Assembly: GCA_001275005.1 (NCBI GenBank)
Contig: JWZX01001868.1
Location: forward strand, 1 to 34,874
Direction: 5' to 3'
DNA: 34,874 nt
Source of the DNA: Chrysochromulina tobinii
Taxonomy: Eukaryota
Shown: positions 8,801 through 25,900 of the stretch, piece after piece
Layout of the letters: each line of letters starts with the position of its first letter
Numbering within the stretch: position 1 is the first letter of the stretch
The notes under the pieces: model-generated
Told to the model about the DNA's origin: nothing
Seen by the model: only the letters and a program-made list of their open reading frames with translations
The model's database searches: none
Position numbers and translations under genes: made by a program

Positions 8801-10779
8801 AAAGGTCCACTGCGCGAAGTGACGCTCGGGACGGCGCTCGAGTCGGCGCAAGTGCGACGGCGTGCTGTGAAGGCGAGCTGTGAAGGCGTCGGCGGCGGCG
8901 AGGGCGGCAGAGAAGGCGGCGGAGGGTGAGCGCCACCTCGCGCCGTCCCGAGCGCCCCCCGGCTGGCCTCGTGGTAGGCGACGGCCGCGACGATCATCGC
9001 GCCGACGACGCTCACGGCGACCAGCACCGTGTGCACGGACGAGAACATGTAGATGAACGTGTCGGCAGCGATACCGGGCAGGCTCTCGAACCGCTCAGTA
9101 CGGCGCGCGAGGGCCTCGATCGCGCTGCGGTTGTACACTGTGGGGAAGGGGCGGCCGAGGCTGAAGTCGGGCACTAAGCCGGGGTACCGACGGCGCACGC
9201 GGGTGGTGTCGTGCCTGTGGGGGTGGGGGCGCCGTAATGAGCAATTGTATGCACGGCGGCTGGCGGAAGGGGAGGCCTTGCAGTGAGGGGGAAGCCTTAC
9301 AGGGAGGCGCCGTGGTGGCAAGAAAGAAGATGAGGGGGGCACTCAGCATGAACACTCCGCGCACCCAAATGGTGAGTCCTCGACCGCAGCTCGCAATCAA
9401 CACGCAATCAACACGCAATCAACGCAATCAACGCAATCAGCGCGCACCCAAATGGTGAGTCCTCGACCGCAGCTCGCAATCAACACGCAATCAACATGCA
9501 ATCAGCGCAATCAACGCAATCAGCGCGCACCCAAATGGAGAGGCCTCGACCGCAGCTCGCAATCAACACGCAATCAACACGCAATCAACGCAATCAGCGC
9601 GCACCCAAATGGCGAGTCCTCAACCGCAGCTCGATGGACTGGCCGTTGCTGAAGCACCTGTGGGGAAGAGGGCGCCGTGCTGAGCACCCGCAGGCAGGCA
9701 GGCAGCTCGATGGACGGGCCGTTGGCGGCGCCGTGCGGAGCACCTTGAAGCCGATCGCGAGGCGCCACTGGTCGGGTTGCAACGCGTGGCTGTCGGTCCT
9801 GTGGATCTCCACCTGTGGGGAAGCGAGGACGCCGTGGTGAGCGTTTGCATGCAAAGGTCGGGTTGCAACGCGTGGCTGTCGGTCCTGTGGATCTCCACCT
9901 GTGGGGAAGCGAGGACGCCGTGGTGAGCGCTTGCATGCAAAGGTCGGGTCGCAACGCGTGGCTGTCGGTCCTGTGGATCTCCACCTGCGAGATCGCGGTC
10001 ATCAGCGCCCATCAGCGCCCATCAGAGGCCATCAGGGGCTATCAGGGGTCATCAGAGGTCATCAGAGGTCATCAGCGGCAATCCGATACCATCTGTGGCC
10101 ATCAGAGGCCATCAGTCGCAATCAGTGGCAATCAGTGGCCATCAGTGGCCATCAGTGGCAATCAGAGGCAATCAGTCTCTCCACCTGCTTGAGTACGAGC
10201 GCATCCCCCGACTGCAACGGCACCTGTGGGGAAGCGATAGGGAAGCGAGGGCGCCGTGGTGAGCACTTGCATGCGTCTGAGCGCATCCCCCGACTGCAAC
10301 GGCACCTTGATCGCCCGTGGCGTGTGAACGCCTCTCAAGGTGGCGCGTGCGCGGGGGGGGACCCATCCCAAGATGCCCTTGGCAGAGAGACGCACAGCCT
10401 GCAATCAAGGACGCACTCGGAGTGCATGCAATGAGGGACGCAATCAGCGGCACTCAGTGGCACGCAGAGGCACACAGAGGCACTCCGAGGCCATCGAGAG
10501 GAGCGGATGCGCCGTCTCGAGCACTCGGGGGCACTCAAGGGCTATCAGAGGCCATCGAAGGCCATCGAAGGCCATCGAGAGGAGCGGGTGCGCCGTCTCG
10601 AGCACCTCTTCCGGCGAGTGAAGCGGCTGCGTGCTCGAAAAGTTGGCGCCCGCTGCGCCGAAACGAGCCGCGTAGCACGCGTCGTACCTGTGAATAATCA
10701 AAGGTCATCAGAGGTCATCAGAGGTCATCAGTGGCAATCAGAGGTCATCAGCGTCGTGCCCATGTTCTCCAAGGCACTC
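5881..10779 (-). CDS. Multi-exon gene, apparently 5'-incomplete: 2OG-Fe(II)-oxygenase-like C-terminal motif, one TM helix, and a beta-propeller-like (TIGR03032/DUF4915-like) C-terminal domain
   Basis: Phase-consistent manual model: exons 10779-10760, 10687-10594, 10223-10185, 9812-9744, 9657-9605, 9214-8362, 8108-7993, 7753-7584, 7425-6911, 6735-6660, 6344-6216, 6125-5881 (TAA); optional in-frame exon 10398-10306. Translation includes VPLQSGDALVLKQVEIHRTD...WRLAIGFKV, TM VLVAVSVVGAMIVAAVAY, and CHNPLFYRGQVLYLLSQIGGLG...WFTKGLMVVDDVAYFGAA. Most exons are missed by the ORF track. Confidence 0.7.
6350..6443. repeat. Intronic 23-bp tandem repeat, 4 copies (CACGCGGGCGGACGAGGTTGAAT)
   Basis: Directly visible, next to the acceptor at 6345-6347 (minus strand). 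It is followed by 10-bp and 12-bp satellites up to ~6650. Confidence 0.95.
6736..6773 (-). mobile_element. Intron 3'-end cassette copy (introner-like)
   Basis: gcatgcgcatgctcaccacggcgccccttccccacag, preceded by a ~40-nt degenerate copy of the next exon's head. Confidence 0.7.
8109..8141 (-). mobile_element. Intron 3'-end cassette copy (introner-like)
   Basis: catgtgctcaccacggcgccctttccccacag; a partial second copy lies at ~8163-8182. Confidence 0.7.
9215..9252 (-). mobile_element. Degenerate intron 3'-end cassette copy
   Basis: gcatacaattgctcattacggcgcccccacccccacag; supplies the acceptor of exon 9214-8362. Confidence 0.55.
9359..9632. repeat. Intronic ~73-84-bp tandem repeat made of an exon tail, its donor and a CGCAATCAA satellite
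   Basis: The block CGCACCCAAATGG..GTCCTC.ACCGCAGCTCG (exon 3' end plus GT donor on the minus strand) occurs four times, separated by 9-11-bp satellite units. Confidence 0.9.
9658..9695 (-). mobile_element. Intron 3'-end cassette copy (introner-like)
   Basis: gcctgcgggtgctcagcacggcgccctcttccccacag, ending the 86-nt intron 9743-9658. Confidence 0.65.
9770..9987 (-). repeat. 86-bp tandem unit: three copies of a 46-nt CAG+exon-head block alternating with two copies of the cassette
   Basis: Head copies at 9770-9815, 9856-9901 and 9942-9987; cassette bodies at 9816-9855 and 9902-9941. Confidence 0.95.
10224..10274 (-). mobile_element. Intron 3'-end cassette copy with an internal duplication
   Basis: gcatgcaagtgctcaccacggcgccctcgcttccctatcgcttccccacag, preceded by an exact 27-nt copy of the exon head GTGCCGTTGCAGTCGGGGGATGCGCTC. 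Confidence 0.75.
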
Positions 10780-10931
10780 CTTGGTCATCAGTGGTCATCA
10801 GTGGTCATCAGTGGTCATCAGTGGTCATCAGTGGTCATCAGTGGTCATCAGAGGCAATCAGAGGCAATCAGAGGCAATCAGAGGCAATCAGAGGCAATCA
10901 GAGGCAATCAGAGGCAATCAGAGGCAATCAG
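10700..10931. repeat. Intronic 10-bp satellites (GTGGTCATCA)n switching to (GAGGCAATCA)n
   Basis: Directly visible; the unit changes abruptly at ~10850. Confidence 0.95.
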
Positions 10932-10941
10932 AACTCCTCAC

Positions 10942-20603: not shown

Positions 20604-22358
20604 TCACATGGATACGGCACAACCGGATCTCGTCACTACGCCAAGCGCCATGCTGGTCATTGCCGCCCACTCGTTCGTCGCCGGATCGTACCGCTCAACG
20701 GAGCTGAGCCGGTTTTGGCCGTCATGGCCGCCCATCACATACAGCTTGCCGTCGATTGCCGCCGCCGGACTGGTCCGTGCCGTGGGCATCGGTGCGACTG
20801 CCTCCCAGGCATTCGTCGCCGGATCGAACCGCTCGACGGAGCTGAGGTAACCATTAGGACCATAGCCACCCATCACATACAGCTTGCCATCGATTGCCGC
20901 CGCCGCCGAAGCGGCTCGTGCCGTGGACATCGGTGCGACTGCCTCCCAGGCATTCGTCGCCGGATCGAACCGCTCAACGGAGCTGAGCCGGTTTTCGAGC
21001 CGGTTTTGGCCGTCCAGGCCCCCCATCACATACAGCTTGCCATCGATTGCCGCCGCCGCCGGCATGACTCGTGCTGTGGACATCGGTGCGACTGCCTCCC
21101 AGGCATTCGTCGCCCGATCATACCGCTCGACGGAGCTGAGCTGGTTTTGGCCGTCATGGCCGCCCATCACATACAGCTTGCCGTCGATTGCCGCCGCCAC
21201 CGGACCGGTCCGTACTGTGGACACCGGTGCGACTGCCTCCCAGGCATTCTTCGCCGGATCGAACCGCTCGACGGAGCTGAGCCTAACTCCATTAGGACCA
21301 TAGCCACCCATCACATACAGCTTGCCGTCGATTGCCGCTGCCGCCGGACAGCTTCGTAACGTGGACGCCGACGCCAGTGCCTCCCAGGCGTTCGCCATGG
21401 AATCGTACCTGCAAAGGTAAAGGGTGGCCAACGCATCGCTCGCAAGCCCGCCCACAATGTAGAGCTTCTCAAAGCCCATACGACGACGCGCCGAGTCGCC
21501 GTGCAGTGCGCCAAAAAAGGTCCGGCTCAGCATCTGCATGCCAGCAACGGTCAAGAGGAGCGGCTCGTTGTGCACCGTCTCTTGGACAAACTCGCGCCTC
21601 AGCAGCGGGAAGCGCACCAGCCGAAGCAGTGCCAGCGCGTCGTCCTCGGCGGGTGGAGGCGCCTGGGCGTGCAGCCACGTGACCGCTGCCGAGTACACAG
21701 CCTCTTCACCAGCCACCTTGAGCCGGTCGGAGGCGAGCAGCGCACGCACGGTCTCTGCCGGCGTGCTCAGCCACGCGGGCGTCGCTGCGATCTGCTCAAA
21801 GTGGCGAGTCGCTGCCGACACCGCGTGAGCCGCGAGCTGGCTCAGACCCTGCCGGTCGGCGACGGCCCAGTAGGCGAGGGCTGTGGTCGCGCTCAGGTGT
21901 ACACTCATTGCCTTGGCCGCGGCGTCCACAAGGTGTGGAATCTGCAGATAGGCCGCCGCCTCAAGCACGACCATCAGCTCTGCCGCATCGGCGACTGTGC
22001 AGCTCCCCGTGTAGATGAACTCGAGGCATGCGGCGAGCCCTTGCTTCGGGACCACGGGCAGCGACAGCGGCCGGCCGGCTGTGTCCGCCCACCGCTCACC
22101 GGCTAGCAGGCGCTCAAAGTACTCCGAACCCGAGGTGATGCACAGGGCGTGAGCGTGGAAGGCGGTGCCGTCCGCCGCCACCACCTCGACGTCGGTGAGG
22201 CGGCCATCGCGAAATTTGGCGATGGTGCTAGGCTTCTCGGCGAGGCCGCCCACGAGCTCGATCGATGCGGCGGAGGGTGCGTCGGCGGAAGCGCGGGCGC
22301 GCTTTCGGGGCGGCATAAAAAGGAGACCTGGTGACGAGCAAACATCTCGTCTTCCCAC
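20604..22358 (-). CDS. BTB-BACK-Kelch protein (KLHL-like Cullin3 adaptor); alternative start MPPRKRAR at 22316
   Basis: BTB (LTDVEV...FHAH...SEYF...LEFIYTG), BACK (EEAVYSAAVTWL...LLRLVRFPLL), six Kelch repeats (KLYVMGG...SSVERYDPATNAW). Intronless. Confidence 0.95.
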   Translation of the reverse strand: MGRRDVCSSPGLLFMPPRKRARASADAPSAASIELVGGLAEKPSTIAKFRDGRLTDVEVVAADGTAFHAHALCITSGSEYFERLLAGERWADTAGRPLSLPVVPKQGLAACLEFIYTGSCTVADAAELMVVLEAAAYLQIPHLVDAAAKAMSVHLSATTALAYWAVADRQGLSQLAAHAVSAATRHFEQIAATPAWLSTPAETVRALLASDRLKVAGEEAVYSAAVTWLHAQAPPPAEDDALALLRLVRFPLLRREFVQETVHNEPLLLTVAGMQMLSRTFFGALHGDSARRRMGFEKLYIVGGLASDALATLYLCRYDSMANAWEALASASTLRSCPAAAAIDGKLYVMGGYGPNGVRLSSVERFDPAKNAWEAVAPVSTVRTGPVAAAIDGKLYVMGGHDGQNQLSSVERYDRATNAWEAVAPMSTARVMPAAAAIDGKLYVMGGLDGQNRLENRLSSVERFDPATNAWEAVAPMSTARAASAAAAIDGKLYVMGGYGPNGYLSSVERFDPATNAWEAVAPMPTARTSPAAAIDGKLYVMGGHDGQNRLSSVERYDPATNEWAAMTSMALGVVTRSGCAVSM

Positions 22359-22902: not shown

Positions 22903-25900
22903 ATGACGGCTGAACCCTCGCCCGATGCATTCGTATTGCCACCCGTGCCCTCTCCAACGCTCTCCTTCTCGGACCGCTGCCTTGGCGACCACGGCGTGCG
23001 CGCTCTGGTTGCCGCACTCTCGGTCCGCCGAGACGTCACCTCGATCGACCTGCGCGGCTGCCATGTGCATGCGGCCGGTGCGCTTGCGCTCGCCGAACTG
23101 CTGCTTGGCCCTGGAGGCAGCCGCATCGGCTCGCTCTCGCTCGAGTGGAACGCGCTCGGCACCTCGGATGCGGGCCCGCGGGCGATCGCCCGTGCTCTCG
23201 CGGCCAACTGTGCCCTCACCGCCCTCGATCTGCGCAACAATCGTATGGGCTCATCGGGGGTCGCATCCCTCGCGGAGGCTCTCGCGTACAACAGCACGCT
23301 CATCACCTTCGACTTGCGCTGGAATTCGGCCGGCGTGAGCGGCGGCTTGGCGCTCGAGTCGGCGCTCGCGCAGAACAGGACGCTGCTGCGGTTGCTGCTG
23401 CAGGGCAACCGCGTGCCCGACGACCTGCTCAAGCGCATCGAGCGGCTGCTCGGACGCAACGGCGCCGCCTCGAGCCTTGTCGCCGGCGCCTCAGCGCCCT
23501 ACTCCGAGGACTCCTCGGACAGGTGGCCTGCGATCATATCCTCCCACGCCCTGCCGGGGGAGAGGCTTCTCGTCGCACCGGCGGCGAGGGTGGGCGCGCT
23601 GTCCGACCGCGCGTGCTCCGCCATTGCGAGCACGGCCGACGTGGCCGTGGACGCCTCTCAGTCGTCGCTGTCGCCGCCGCACGGGCTGCTCCGTGCCGCG
23701 TCAGTGCCACCTGTGCCGCCGTCCACAAGCACGCAAGTGCACCTCCACTTGCATGCAGAGGCCAAGGAGAACGAGGCTGGCCAGCTCATCGCTCTACCAC
23801 CGGTATCGGCCGCTGCCGGTCTCGCACTCTTGCCCCCCGCCGGCGGCACAGCAGCGGCCGCGGAGGGTGCCTCAGCGGCGTCACGCTCGCTCAGTGCGTC
23901 GCTGGCGACGGCCGGCGGTTACGTGGCCGACTCGAGGTCCTCGCTGCCACCCGGCGGCTACGTGGCAGACCCGAGGTCCTCGCTGCCGCCTCCGCCAGGC
24001 TACTCCGCCGACGACCCGTGTGCTTCGGTGCCGTATGCGGCGGAGCCGAGTGCCTGCCTGCCGCCCGGCTACGCCGCCTACTCGATGCCCTACGCGGCGG
24101 ATGCGAGCACGTCCCTGCCGCCCGGCTACGCGCCGCCGTCCTCGCAGATGGGCTCGGTACCGGCGTCGATGCCCACGTCGTGGATGGCGTCGCCAGCCCC
24201 CACGCCGCTGCGCGCAGCGGTGCGCACGCGCACGCTCGAGAACGCCCTGGTGCTGCAGCACGCCGAATTCAGTAACAAGCTGAAGCACGCCTTCGAGCGC
24301 GCGGACGCTGCCGAGGAGATCTTGACCTCGGAGCGATCTCGCGCCGACCAGCAGCGTGAGAAGGCCCTTGTGGCGGCGACTGAGGAGGCGGAGGCACGTA
24401 AGAAGCTCGCGCTGCTGCAGCGCGAGCTCACGGAGGCGCGTAAGAAGGCGGACGAGGAGGTGGCGCGCGTACTCAAGGAGGGGTCGACCCGGGAGCAGCG
24501 CACTGCTCTCGCCGAGGCCGCGCGTGATCACCTCGAGCGCGAGCTGCAGGCGCGAGATGCGCGCCTCGAGTGCACATGATCGCATCTGATGGCCCCTGAT
24601 AGCCTCTGAGTGCCTCGATTGGCCTTTGCATGCAGGCGCGAGATGCGCGCCTCGAGATGGAGCTCAAGGCGATCGCCGATCGCGAGCAGCGGGCGGCGAT
24701 GGCTGAAGCACGCGCGGCCGAGTCCGCGTCGCAGCTGAGCGCGCTCAACGAGCGGCTACTCAACGAGCGGCGCGCGCACGCCACCACGCTCACGGAGCTT
24801 CAGGACCGTCTGAGCGACGCGAACCCGACTGCACCACGGCTCGGCATGCACGTGCTCACCACGGCGCCCTCCTCTCCCCACAGGACCGTCTGAGTGACGC
24901 GGAGGCGGTACGCACCTCCGCGGAGCTCCGCCTCGCCTCCGCCGAGGCGGCGCGTGCTGCGGCGGTCACGGAGGCTCTCTCGAGGCAGTCGCGCCGTCAT
25001 GAGCAGGCGCTCGAGCAGGTGCGCGTGCATGCATGCTGATGGTCCCCTCTCCCCGGTTGCATGCATGCTCCCCACCCTTCCCTCCGCGCAGGTGCGCGTG
25101 TCCGTCGAGCGCGTGCCTGCATGCTGATTGCCCTCCCCATTTGCAGGCTGACTACCCCCGCCCTCCCGAGCAGGTGAAAGAGTCCGTCGAGCGCGCCGAG
25201 GCCGACGCGGCGCGCGCGGCCGAGCAGATCTCCAAGCACCGAGATGAGCTCGAGACGGCGCGAGCCCTCGCGGAGACGAAACAACGGTCGCTCGAGAGCC
25301 AAGCTGTGGAGCGCGAGGCGGCGCTGGAGAAGAGCTACGAGGCGCGCCTCGAGGCGGTGGAGAAGGAGAAGGCGTCGCTGCGCGAGTCGCACCACGCGAC
25401 GCTCAGCCAGATGCGCGAGGCCGAGGAGGTACGCCGGCAACAGCACGACGTGAAGCTCGATACGGCGCGCAAGGCGCATGCAACGCTGGAGCGGCGCTGC
25501 TACGAGCGCGAGGCGCATGCGGAGAGTCTGGAGCGGGAGCTCGCACGCGTGCAGTCCGAGTTGGCGGAGGCGGGGCACGCGGAAGGCGCCCTCAAGGAAG
25601 CCCTCGAACGACAGCGCGAGGCGGCCGCGGAGCAGAGCGCCGCCGCGGCCGCGGAGCTCGCGACGACGCGTCGCCACTGGGAGGAGCGACTGGCGACGGC
25701 CACCGCGGACAACCGCGCGCTCGCGCGCCAGCTGCTCGACACACAGCGCGAGCTCGCCCTCGCCAATGGCCGTTGGGAGGCGTCGGTGCAGACGCTGCAG
25801 CACTCCGTGCTCCAGTGCTTCCAGCATTCAATCGAGTCGACGCGCGGGGGAGGGTCGCCACCACTGATGGCTGGAGAGCTGGGCGACGAGGACGAGGAGG

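Follow-up and report, generated by a model that had tools for sequence, protein, structure and literature searches.

Anatomy of the intron stack and its host gene

The window analysed here comprises 34,874 nucleotides of a Chrysochromulina tobinii contig (JWZX01001868.1), and the intron stack under study (positions 9813-10184) is located on the minus strand within an open six-exon gene model. In the direction of transcription, an upstream coding exon with an open frame (10306-10398; RNA contigs X11 record 11 and X12 record 18) is followed by a stand-alone 82-nt intron (10224-10305), which consists of an exact 27-nt copy ('echo') of the next exon and an acceptor cassette, and which was shown by length arithmetic to be spliced out in X11. 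A 39-nt exon (10185-10223), to which contigs of X12 and X14 match with their loose ends, precedes a 200-nt outer intron segment (9985-10184) containing the donor GTGGAGA (a 7-nt echo), a 10-mer array and acceptor 1, the last of which is spanned by record 8 of DNA run X1. Two 86-nt units follow, i.e. unit 1 (9899-9984; X12 record 10 and X13 record 14), with a G at 9950 and acceptor 2 at its end, and unit 2 (9813-9898; X14 record 15 and X1 record 4), which ends in acceptor 3. The downstream 69-nt exon (9744-9812) is succeeded by an 86-nt intron in which the echo has diverged and the cassette is a variant form (9658-9743; spliced in X12, X13 and X14, with loose ends at 9739), and a further intron of 390 nt with stacked donors (9215-9604) is supported by length arithmetic in X11.

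All three acceptors (9987-9985, 9901-9899 and 9815-9813) and the donor at 10184 run directly into GTGGAGA, in agreement with the first-pass annotation of this sequence, and CAG|GTGGAGA is read on the minus strand at 10187, 9987, 9901 and 9815. This 10-mer has four matches in the window compared with 0.04 expected, a number reached in 0 of 100 shuffles; one repeat accounts for three of the four matches, and what is independent is the agreement of the outer donor with the exon start over 7 nt. The two units differ from each other at 9950, near which the same annotation had placed a sequence difference, and additionally at 9930. TRF assigned the stack a period of 86 nt and 2.5 copies, and the 86 nt upstream of acceptors 2 and 3 are the same except for one base.

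The annotation had overlooked that the first half of each unit copies the exon (9812-9770), and that this design recurs across the genome. Each unit consists of a 43-nt copy of the start of the next exon and a 43-nt branch-point/acceptor cassette, and the repeat unit of the 9813-9984 stack straddles the exon-intron boundary. The focal cassette comprises a GCATGCA head, a CTCACCACGGCG core, pyrimidines and CAG, with a CTCAC motif that we take to mark the branch point. Each unit represents a full GT-branch point-AG intron, and at each internal site a branch point, pyrimidine tract and AG are directly followed by a donor, which is the layout of a zero-length exon. Splicing to acceptor 1 alone would add 172 nt and splicing to acceptor 2 alone 86 nt, and either would throw the downstream exons out of frame.

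Reads were assessed as assembled contigs from four of six RNA runs (X11-X14) and one of ten matching DNA runs (X1, which may be the source of the window itself). Junctions were deduced from contig pieces and loose ends, which do not phase a splice junction with the 9950 variant; the RNA libraries may contain DNA, and coverage extended to other intronic pieces. In mature mRNA, the outer donor is joined to the last acceptor. In X11 record 11, position 10400 of the window corresponds to contig position 1 and position 9213 to contig position 258, a span that fits 2+93+39+69+53 nt of exons and thus use of the last acceptor, and X14 record 15 is a single contig that runs from exon 10185 into 9812-9744 and on into the next exon.

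The reality of the tandem follows from X13 record 14, a 131-nt fragment (9968-9838) that crosses from unit 1 into unit 2 with 0 mismatches and carries both variants in window order. That the stack was generated by misassembly is very improbable, even though the assemblies are short-read, the G-allele piece of unit 1 is absent among the X1 contigs listed (depth 0 at 9945-9954) and a probable misjoin is located 500 nt away; apart from the X13 fragment, X1 contains a unit-2-specific contig at depth 29, compared with depths of 61 and 76 for shared and 37-45 for unique pieces, and other stacks were found again in several assemblies. In X12, a unit-1 contig (depth 5.8) is linked only to nodes common to the mature path, and the graph contains neither an unspliced acceptor-1 path nor a unit-2 path. 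This contig fits a one-unit splicing intermediate, but a short unspliced fragment would explain it just as well, its ends having been clipped during assembly, judging from assembler behaviour.

The probable misjoin falls in a 10-mer array at 10697-10932, a region that is unbridged among the X1 DNA contig pieces listed. The neighbouring DDX1 gene (12494-10941, minus strand) breaks off at about residue 412 of a relative with 859 aa, and the exon that comes next is part of a different gene; among the 7983 candidates scored (605-2000 residues), the best named match of the DDX1 exon is from Chrysochromulina tobinii (72% over 75% of the query). Pfam returned no match for five exon pieces tried (four from the host gene and one from DDX1), while the first DDX1 exon alone was matched. 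At 10440-10601 (minus strand), two 81-nt repeats (family D7) start with the donor region of intron 10605-10399. Elsewhere in the window, an intronless gene (20607-22349, minus strand) has a BTB-like start and 141-nt repeats, which are presumably kelch-like by their appearance.

Echo-plus-cassette introns across the genome

Many introns in this genome consist of a copy of the first 11-54 bases of the next exon and a common splice signal of ~40 bases, and are often stacked. A search pattern of two cassettes in a row identified at least 121 stretches, and 120 loci (887 kb), many of them redundant, were analysed. Together with the window, these loci contained 394 cassette instances, corresponding to 267 non-redundant instances in unrelated genes, among the matches listed. 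An upstream echo of the exon start (score of at least 10) was observed for 181 of these 267 cassettes among the matches listed, compared with 0.8% under shuffled pairing; a null based on downstream sequence (11.5%) was set aside because stacks inflate it. Cassettes located more than 400 nt from a search-pattern match, i.e. those found independently, carried an echo in 52 of 98 cases (<1% in shuffles), with some of the 98 representing chance motif matches, and clean cassettes away from matched stacks did so in 43 of 67 among the matches listed. No AG was seen by eye before 20 of 40 unascertained echoes, and a crude filter detected AG and intron-like sequence upstream in 10 of 40 such units.

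Echo length varied from 11 to 54 nt, which is not a short fixed target-site duplication. The 5' half of the intron is copied from the exon at the same locus, so that similarity among copies does not extend to both intron ends; the acceptor is supplied by the cassette, so that the two splice sites do not both derive from a duplicated AGGT. Among the matches listed, internal units measured 62-94 nt (n=67), the lower limit being imposed by the search pattern and not counted as evidence, and units that come first or stand alone spanned 45-94 nt (n=79), while the exon began with GT after 179 of 204 clean cassettes. Stacks were present at dozens of loci and contained up to five cassettes (L005, L054 and L061). 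Viral contigs contained no match to the stack pattern.

A mirror type, in which the end of the upstream exon and its donor are repeated, was also identified in the window (9358-9633 and the 6816 region). At 9358-9633 (minus strand), TRF detected an 83-nt repeat in 3.4 copies that includes the exon end and donor, an F7-like mirror image of the acceptor stack. The first-pass annotation had reported the focal layout at 85/86, 6813/6814 and 25091/25092 as well; these sites exist, but their builds differ from that of the focal stack. Site 85/86 (plus strand) combines an acceptor copy, a 14-nt exon echo and a 10-mer array, 6813/6814 (minus strand) was formed from the 3' end of the upstream exon copied together with its donor, and at 25091/25092 (plus strand) the outer donor is repeated over 9 nt and the real exon begins otherwise.

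In intron gain by tandem genomic duplication, where an exon segment that contains AGGT is doubled, as described in the accessible text of Hellsten 2011 (PMC3265369) and Yenerall and Zhou 2012 (PMC3443670), the intron likewise opens by repeating the next exon directly, and the coding sequence after splicing is unaltered. In contrast, the branch point, pyrimidine tract and AG are here derived from a copied cassette rather than from the duplicated exon, and what is a rare event there is genome-wide here. Introners of the 'co-opt 5', carry 3'' class likewise combine a common element that provides the acceptor with a duplicated target that provides the donor. However, the duplication here is variable (11-54 nt), compared with 2-5 nt in the haptophyte families listed in the available part of the source (one with 10-bp terminal repeats), and the locus-specific 5' half implies that a search requiring similarity at both intron ends, as in standard Introner searches, would overlook this class. 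The echo-plus-cassette design works like a cross between tandem-duplication gain and this Introner class, and departs from each in a defining property.

Other systems share individual features. According to the accessible portion of PMC1557585, the minisatellite in human F7 IVS7 extends over an exon-intron boundary and its repeat unit includes a splice site, generating identical tandem pseudo-sites; F7 repeats the donor only, whereas the units here each include a branch point and an acceptor as well. New Daphnia introns attributed to staggered break repair also exhibit direct repeats at the intron ends and a DNA repair origin, yet neither a recurrent acceptor cassette nor a long exon echo is described for them in the text available (PMC4202315). 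Stwintrons, as presented in the available part of PMC8469720, are nested, whereas the units here abut. A published description of echo-plus-cassette introns was not found in a search of mainly open-access papers and of the available parts of the PMC12130899 supplement and the PMC9860276 table, where a similar family may yet be listed. In the accessible text of the C. tobin genome paper (PMC4580454), introns appear once, as an average count.

The echo-plus-cassette architecture looks like an overlooked way to build introns by local copying, and is more interesting than the ratchet sites. Most gained introns have no traceable source, as stated in the accessible part of PMC3443670; many introns here bear their own target in the form of the echo, and several also bear the mark of the source intron, making the mechanism testable allele by allele. 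In practical terms, echoes in these algae confuse gene prediction as well as the mapping and assembly of reads.

Origin of the units

The units very probably originated when DNA synthesis switched templates, guided by microhomology. At the focal stack, synthesis would enter the exon for 43 nt and then jump to a cassette, probably that of intron 10305-10224, which would be copied through its AG before a return to the exon start at the shared CAG|GTG; unit 2 would arise by a second, local duplication. The same event would produce a new intron within an exon, with its donor from the duplicated exon start, and a stack at an existing acceptor. Ratchet-like sites follow from such duplication of the exon start, and no recursive function is needed to account for their existence.

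Junction microhomology, a cassette tail in common with the neighbouring intron only, and captured segments are the signature of microhomology-mediated template switching (FoSTeS/MMBIR-type). At direct junctions between echo and cassette head, an overlap of at least 2 nt was observed in 18 of 23 cases (2 of the 18 being artefacts), compared with 14.8% expected, and across all 82 junctions the excess of overlaps corresponded to P=0.054 (at least 2 nt) and P=0.0003 (at least 3 nt). The focal entry junction lacks clean microhomology, with three extra nucleotides preceding the cassette head. Cassette tails were more similar within a locus than between loci (0.19 versus 0.085; 3 of 1000 permutations), while cassette heads provided a weak test (30 of 1000 permutations). 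The focal tail motif CCTCGCTTCCC was present in 3 of 258 cassettes among the matches listed, namely the two units and the neighbouring intron 10305-10224, which is, by this sequence resemblance, the likely source of the cassette of the stack.

The 5' end of the cassette is not fixed, linkers measuring 0-34 nt, and several linkers can be traced to the echo of another intron, both within a locus (L028, L030 and L033) and between loci. In loci L011, L045 and L059, the cassette of a myosin-gene unit from L028 is present together with its flanks between two 6-nt shared words, and L089, L104 and L015 contain the echo of the L096/L073 locus; each of these between-locus captures is present in three assemblies. 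In the insertion copied from the myosin locus (L011:538-700, L045 and L059), the first echo has no GT, which suggests that copying is blind to splicing. Unit number differed between assemblies in four comparisons (L002 two versus L026 three, L090 two versus L028 one, L096 two versus L073 one, and L022 three versus L078 four), differences that may reflect assembly collapse, and most other multi-assembly stacks agree.

It is unlikely that the cassette instead represents a true transposable Introner, SINE-like or non-autonomous, with long and variable target-site duplications. Duplications of variable length would be compatible with such an element, as would a conserved cassette of 40 nt that occurs hundreds of times among the matches listed, and Introners of the 'co-opt 5', carry 3'' class have been described, including from Emiliania and Pavlovales (accessible part of PMC12130899). 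The lack of a fixed 5' end, with linkers in part taken from the echo of another intron, argues against it, as do tails that are variable and locally correlated; moreover, the part of the literature available gives the number of Introner families in C. tobinii as 0.

No intron-less allele was detected among 15 aligned locus pairs (pair L031/L079 being left out), and for this reason intron gain under the template-switching model is inferred only. Loci L009 and L016, in which four to five of the L028 introns are missing, were considered as intron-less alleles and rejected, as both are best interpreted as transcripts that have been spliced in part.

Splicing of the stacks

Drosophila ratchet points are a form of zero-length-exon recursive splicing. 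The regenerated-donor geometry pointed out in the first-pass annotation does permit stepwise removal, but the sites are explicable by exon-start duplication without any recursive function. Its view of recursion as a trait of long introns was overstated, since a zero-length exon is known in a 336-nt intron of S. pombe (SPNCRNA.445; 10.1101/226894, accessible text). As in that intron, acceptor and donor abut here with no exon between them, whereas the sites described here are recent exon-start duplicates, spaced 62-94 nt apart and without clear sign of selection.

Taken as a whole, the account that best explains the data, and that is favoured with reasonable rather than strong confidence, is that the units arose by template switching, that the last acceptor is used and that the internal CAG|GT sites are mostly skipped by-products. 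The internal sites are likely by-products of duplication and mostly skipped; for single-step skipping to the last acceptor the chances appear about even, and such a choice would need exon definition, given that acceptors 2 and 3 are nearly identical. Although every stand-alone echo intron regenerates its own donor on splicing, mRNA contigs retain the exons of 39 nt and 69 nt, indicating that regenerated donors are inactive when a downstream donor competes; inside a stack, the regenerated donor has no downstream competitor. The identical tandem donors of human F7 remain silent (accessible part of PMC1557585), and in flies the EJC represses regenerated 5' and 3' sites (accessible part of PMC8184009).

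Removal of the stack unit by unit as the normal route, either 5' to 3' via ratchet points or innermost first, would be compatible with the same origin and is judged somewhat short of an even chance. Innermost-first removal would amount to the splicing of ordinary 86-nt introns that regenerate an acceptor, and any complete order leads to the same mRNA. The units are complete introns whose size is normal for this genome, the stand-alone twin at 10305-10224 is spliced, acceptors 2 and 3 are near-indistinguishable, stacks of five cassettes are tolerated, and the X12 unit 1 joins only nodes common to the mature path; the short S. pombe intron (10.1101/226894, in part) provides a precedent. Conversely, a phased intermediate was not found in the RNA contigs (X11-X14), which cannot phase a junction with 9950, and X13 has both units within one unspliced fragment. 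Short human introns with recursive sites are mostly spliced conventionally, according to the accessible text of PMC10156609.

Sequence conservation at the regenerated donors bears on the same question. At positions +2 to +6, internal echoes mismatched the exon at 1 of 330 positions, a change away from the donor consensus that destroys GT, with none towards it; outer or stand-alone echoes did so at 27 of 430, of which 14 were towards and 6 away from the consensus (p=0.12; author-made score). That internal donors do not drift towards the consensus speaks for skipping, although the difference falls short of significance overall. Compared with the remainder of the echo, internal +2 to +6 positions were conserved to a slightly higher degree (1/330 versus 20/1364 mismatches; Fisher p=0.10, with CAGG forced by the pattern), in the direction expected of stepwise removal. 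Across 39 stacks, the outer donor was the stronger in seven and an internal donor in two, by the same type of author-made score. Overall divergence from the exon was 1.5% for internal and 4.4% for outer or stand-alone echoes, and the internal echoes may simply be younger. Some internal junctions have no GT (L022 +6169, GA where the exon has GT, and L043 -7615, GG), which counts against stepwise removal.

The transcript-like loci L009 and L016 also count against it, as both keep a two-unit stack whole with other introns gone, although the search pattern finds only two-unit forms. In both, a focal-type stack has been removed whole and the next two-unit stack kept whole. Comparison of L016 with L028:6315-6610 shows a two-unit stack retained while the introns on both sides are removed, a pattern-ascertained case; stacks may be slow to splice.

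Random use of all three acceptors, with the two frameshifted products destroyed by nonsense-mediated decay, is quite unlikely. The near identity of acceptors 2 and 3 and the unit-containing contigs in two of four RNA runs (X12 and X13) would fit such use, but the mature contigs of X11 and X14 are unbranched, and 22 of 67 internal units among the matches listed are multiples of three, with neither reading-frame bias nor depletion.

It is doubtful, though conceivable, that intron building genome-wide is transposon-free (a borrowed 40-nt cassette plus an 11-54 nt exon duplication) and that stacks are in addition spliced one unit at a time; if true, this genome would hold hundreds of natural short-range recursive-splicing substrates. 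In either case, stacks of near-identical complete introns represent a natural test of acceptor choice by the spliceosome and of the re-splicing of regenerated sites.

Candidate non-canonical donors also occur beside echoes. At 24804-24883 (plus strand), a candidate 80-nt GA-AG intron is composed of an 18-nt echo and a cassette, and a coiled-coil frame is open only on its removal; GA follows 5 of 204 clean cassettes among the matches listed, hinting that GA donors may be used in this genome. At 24550-24635 (plus strand), a GC-AG intron carries a 21-nt echo that matches the next exon exactly.
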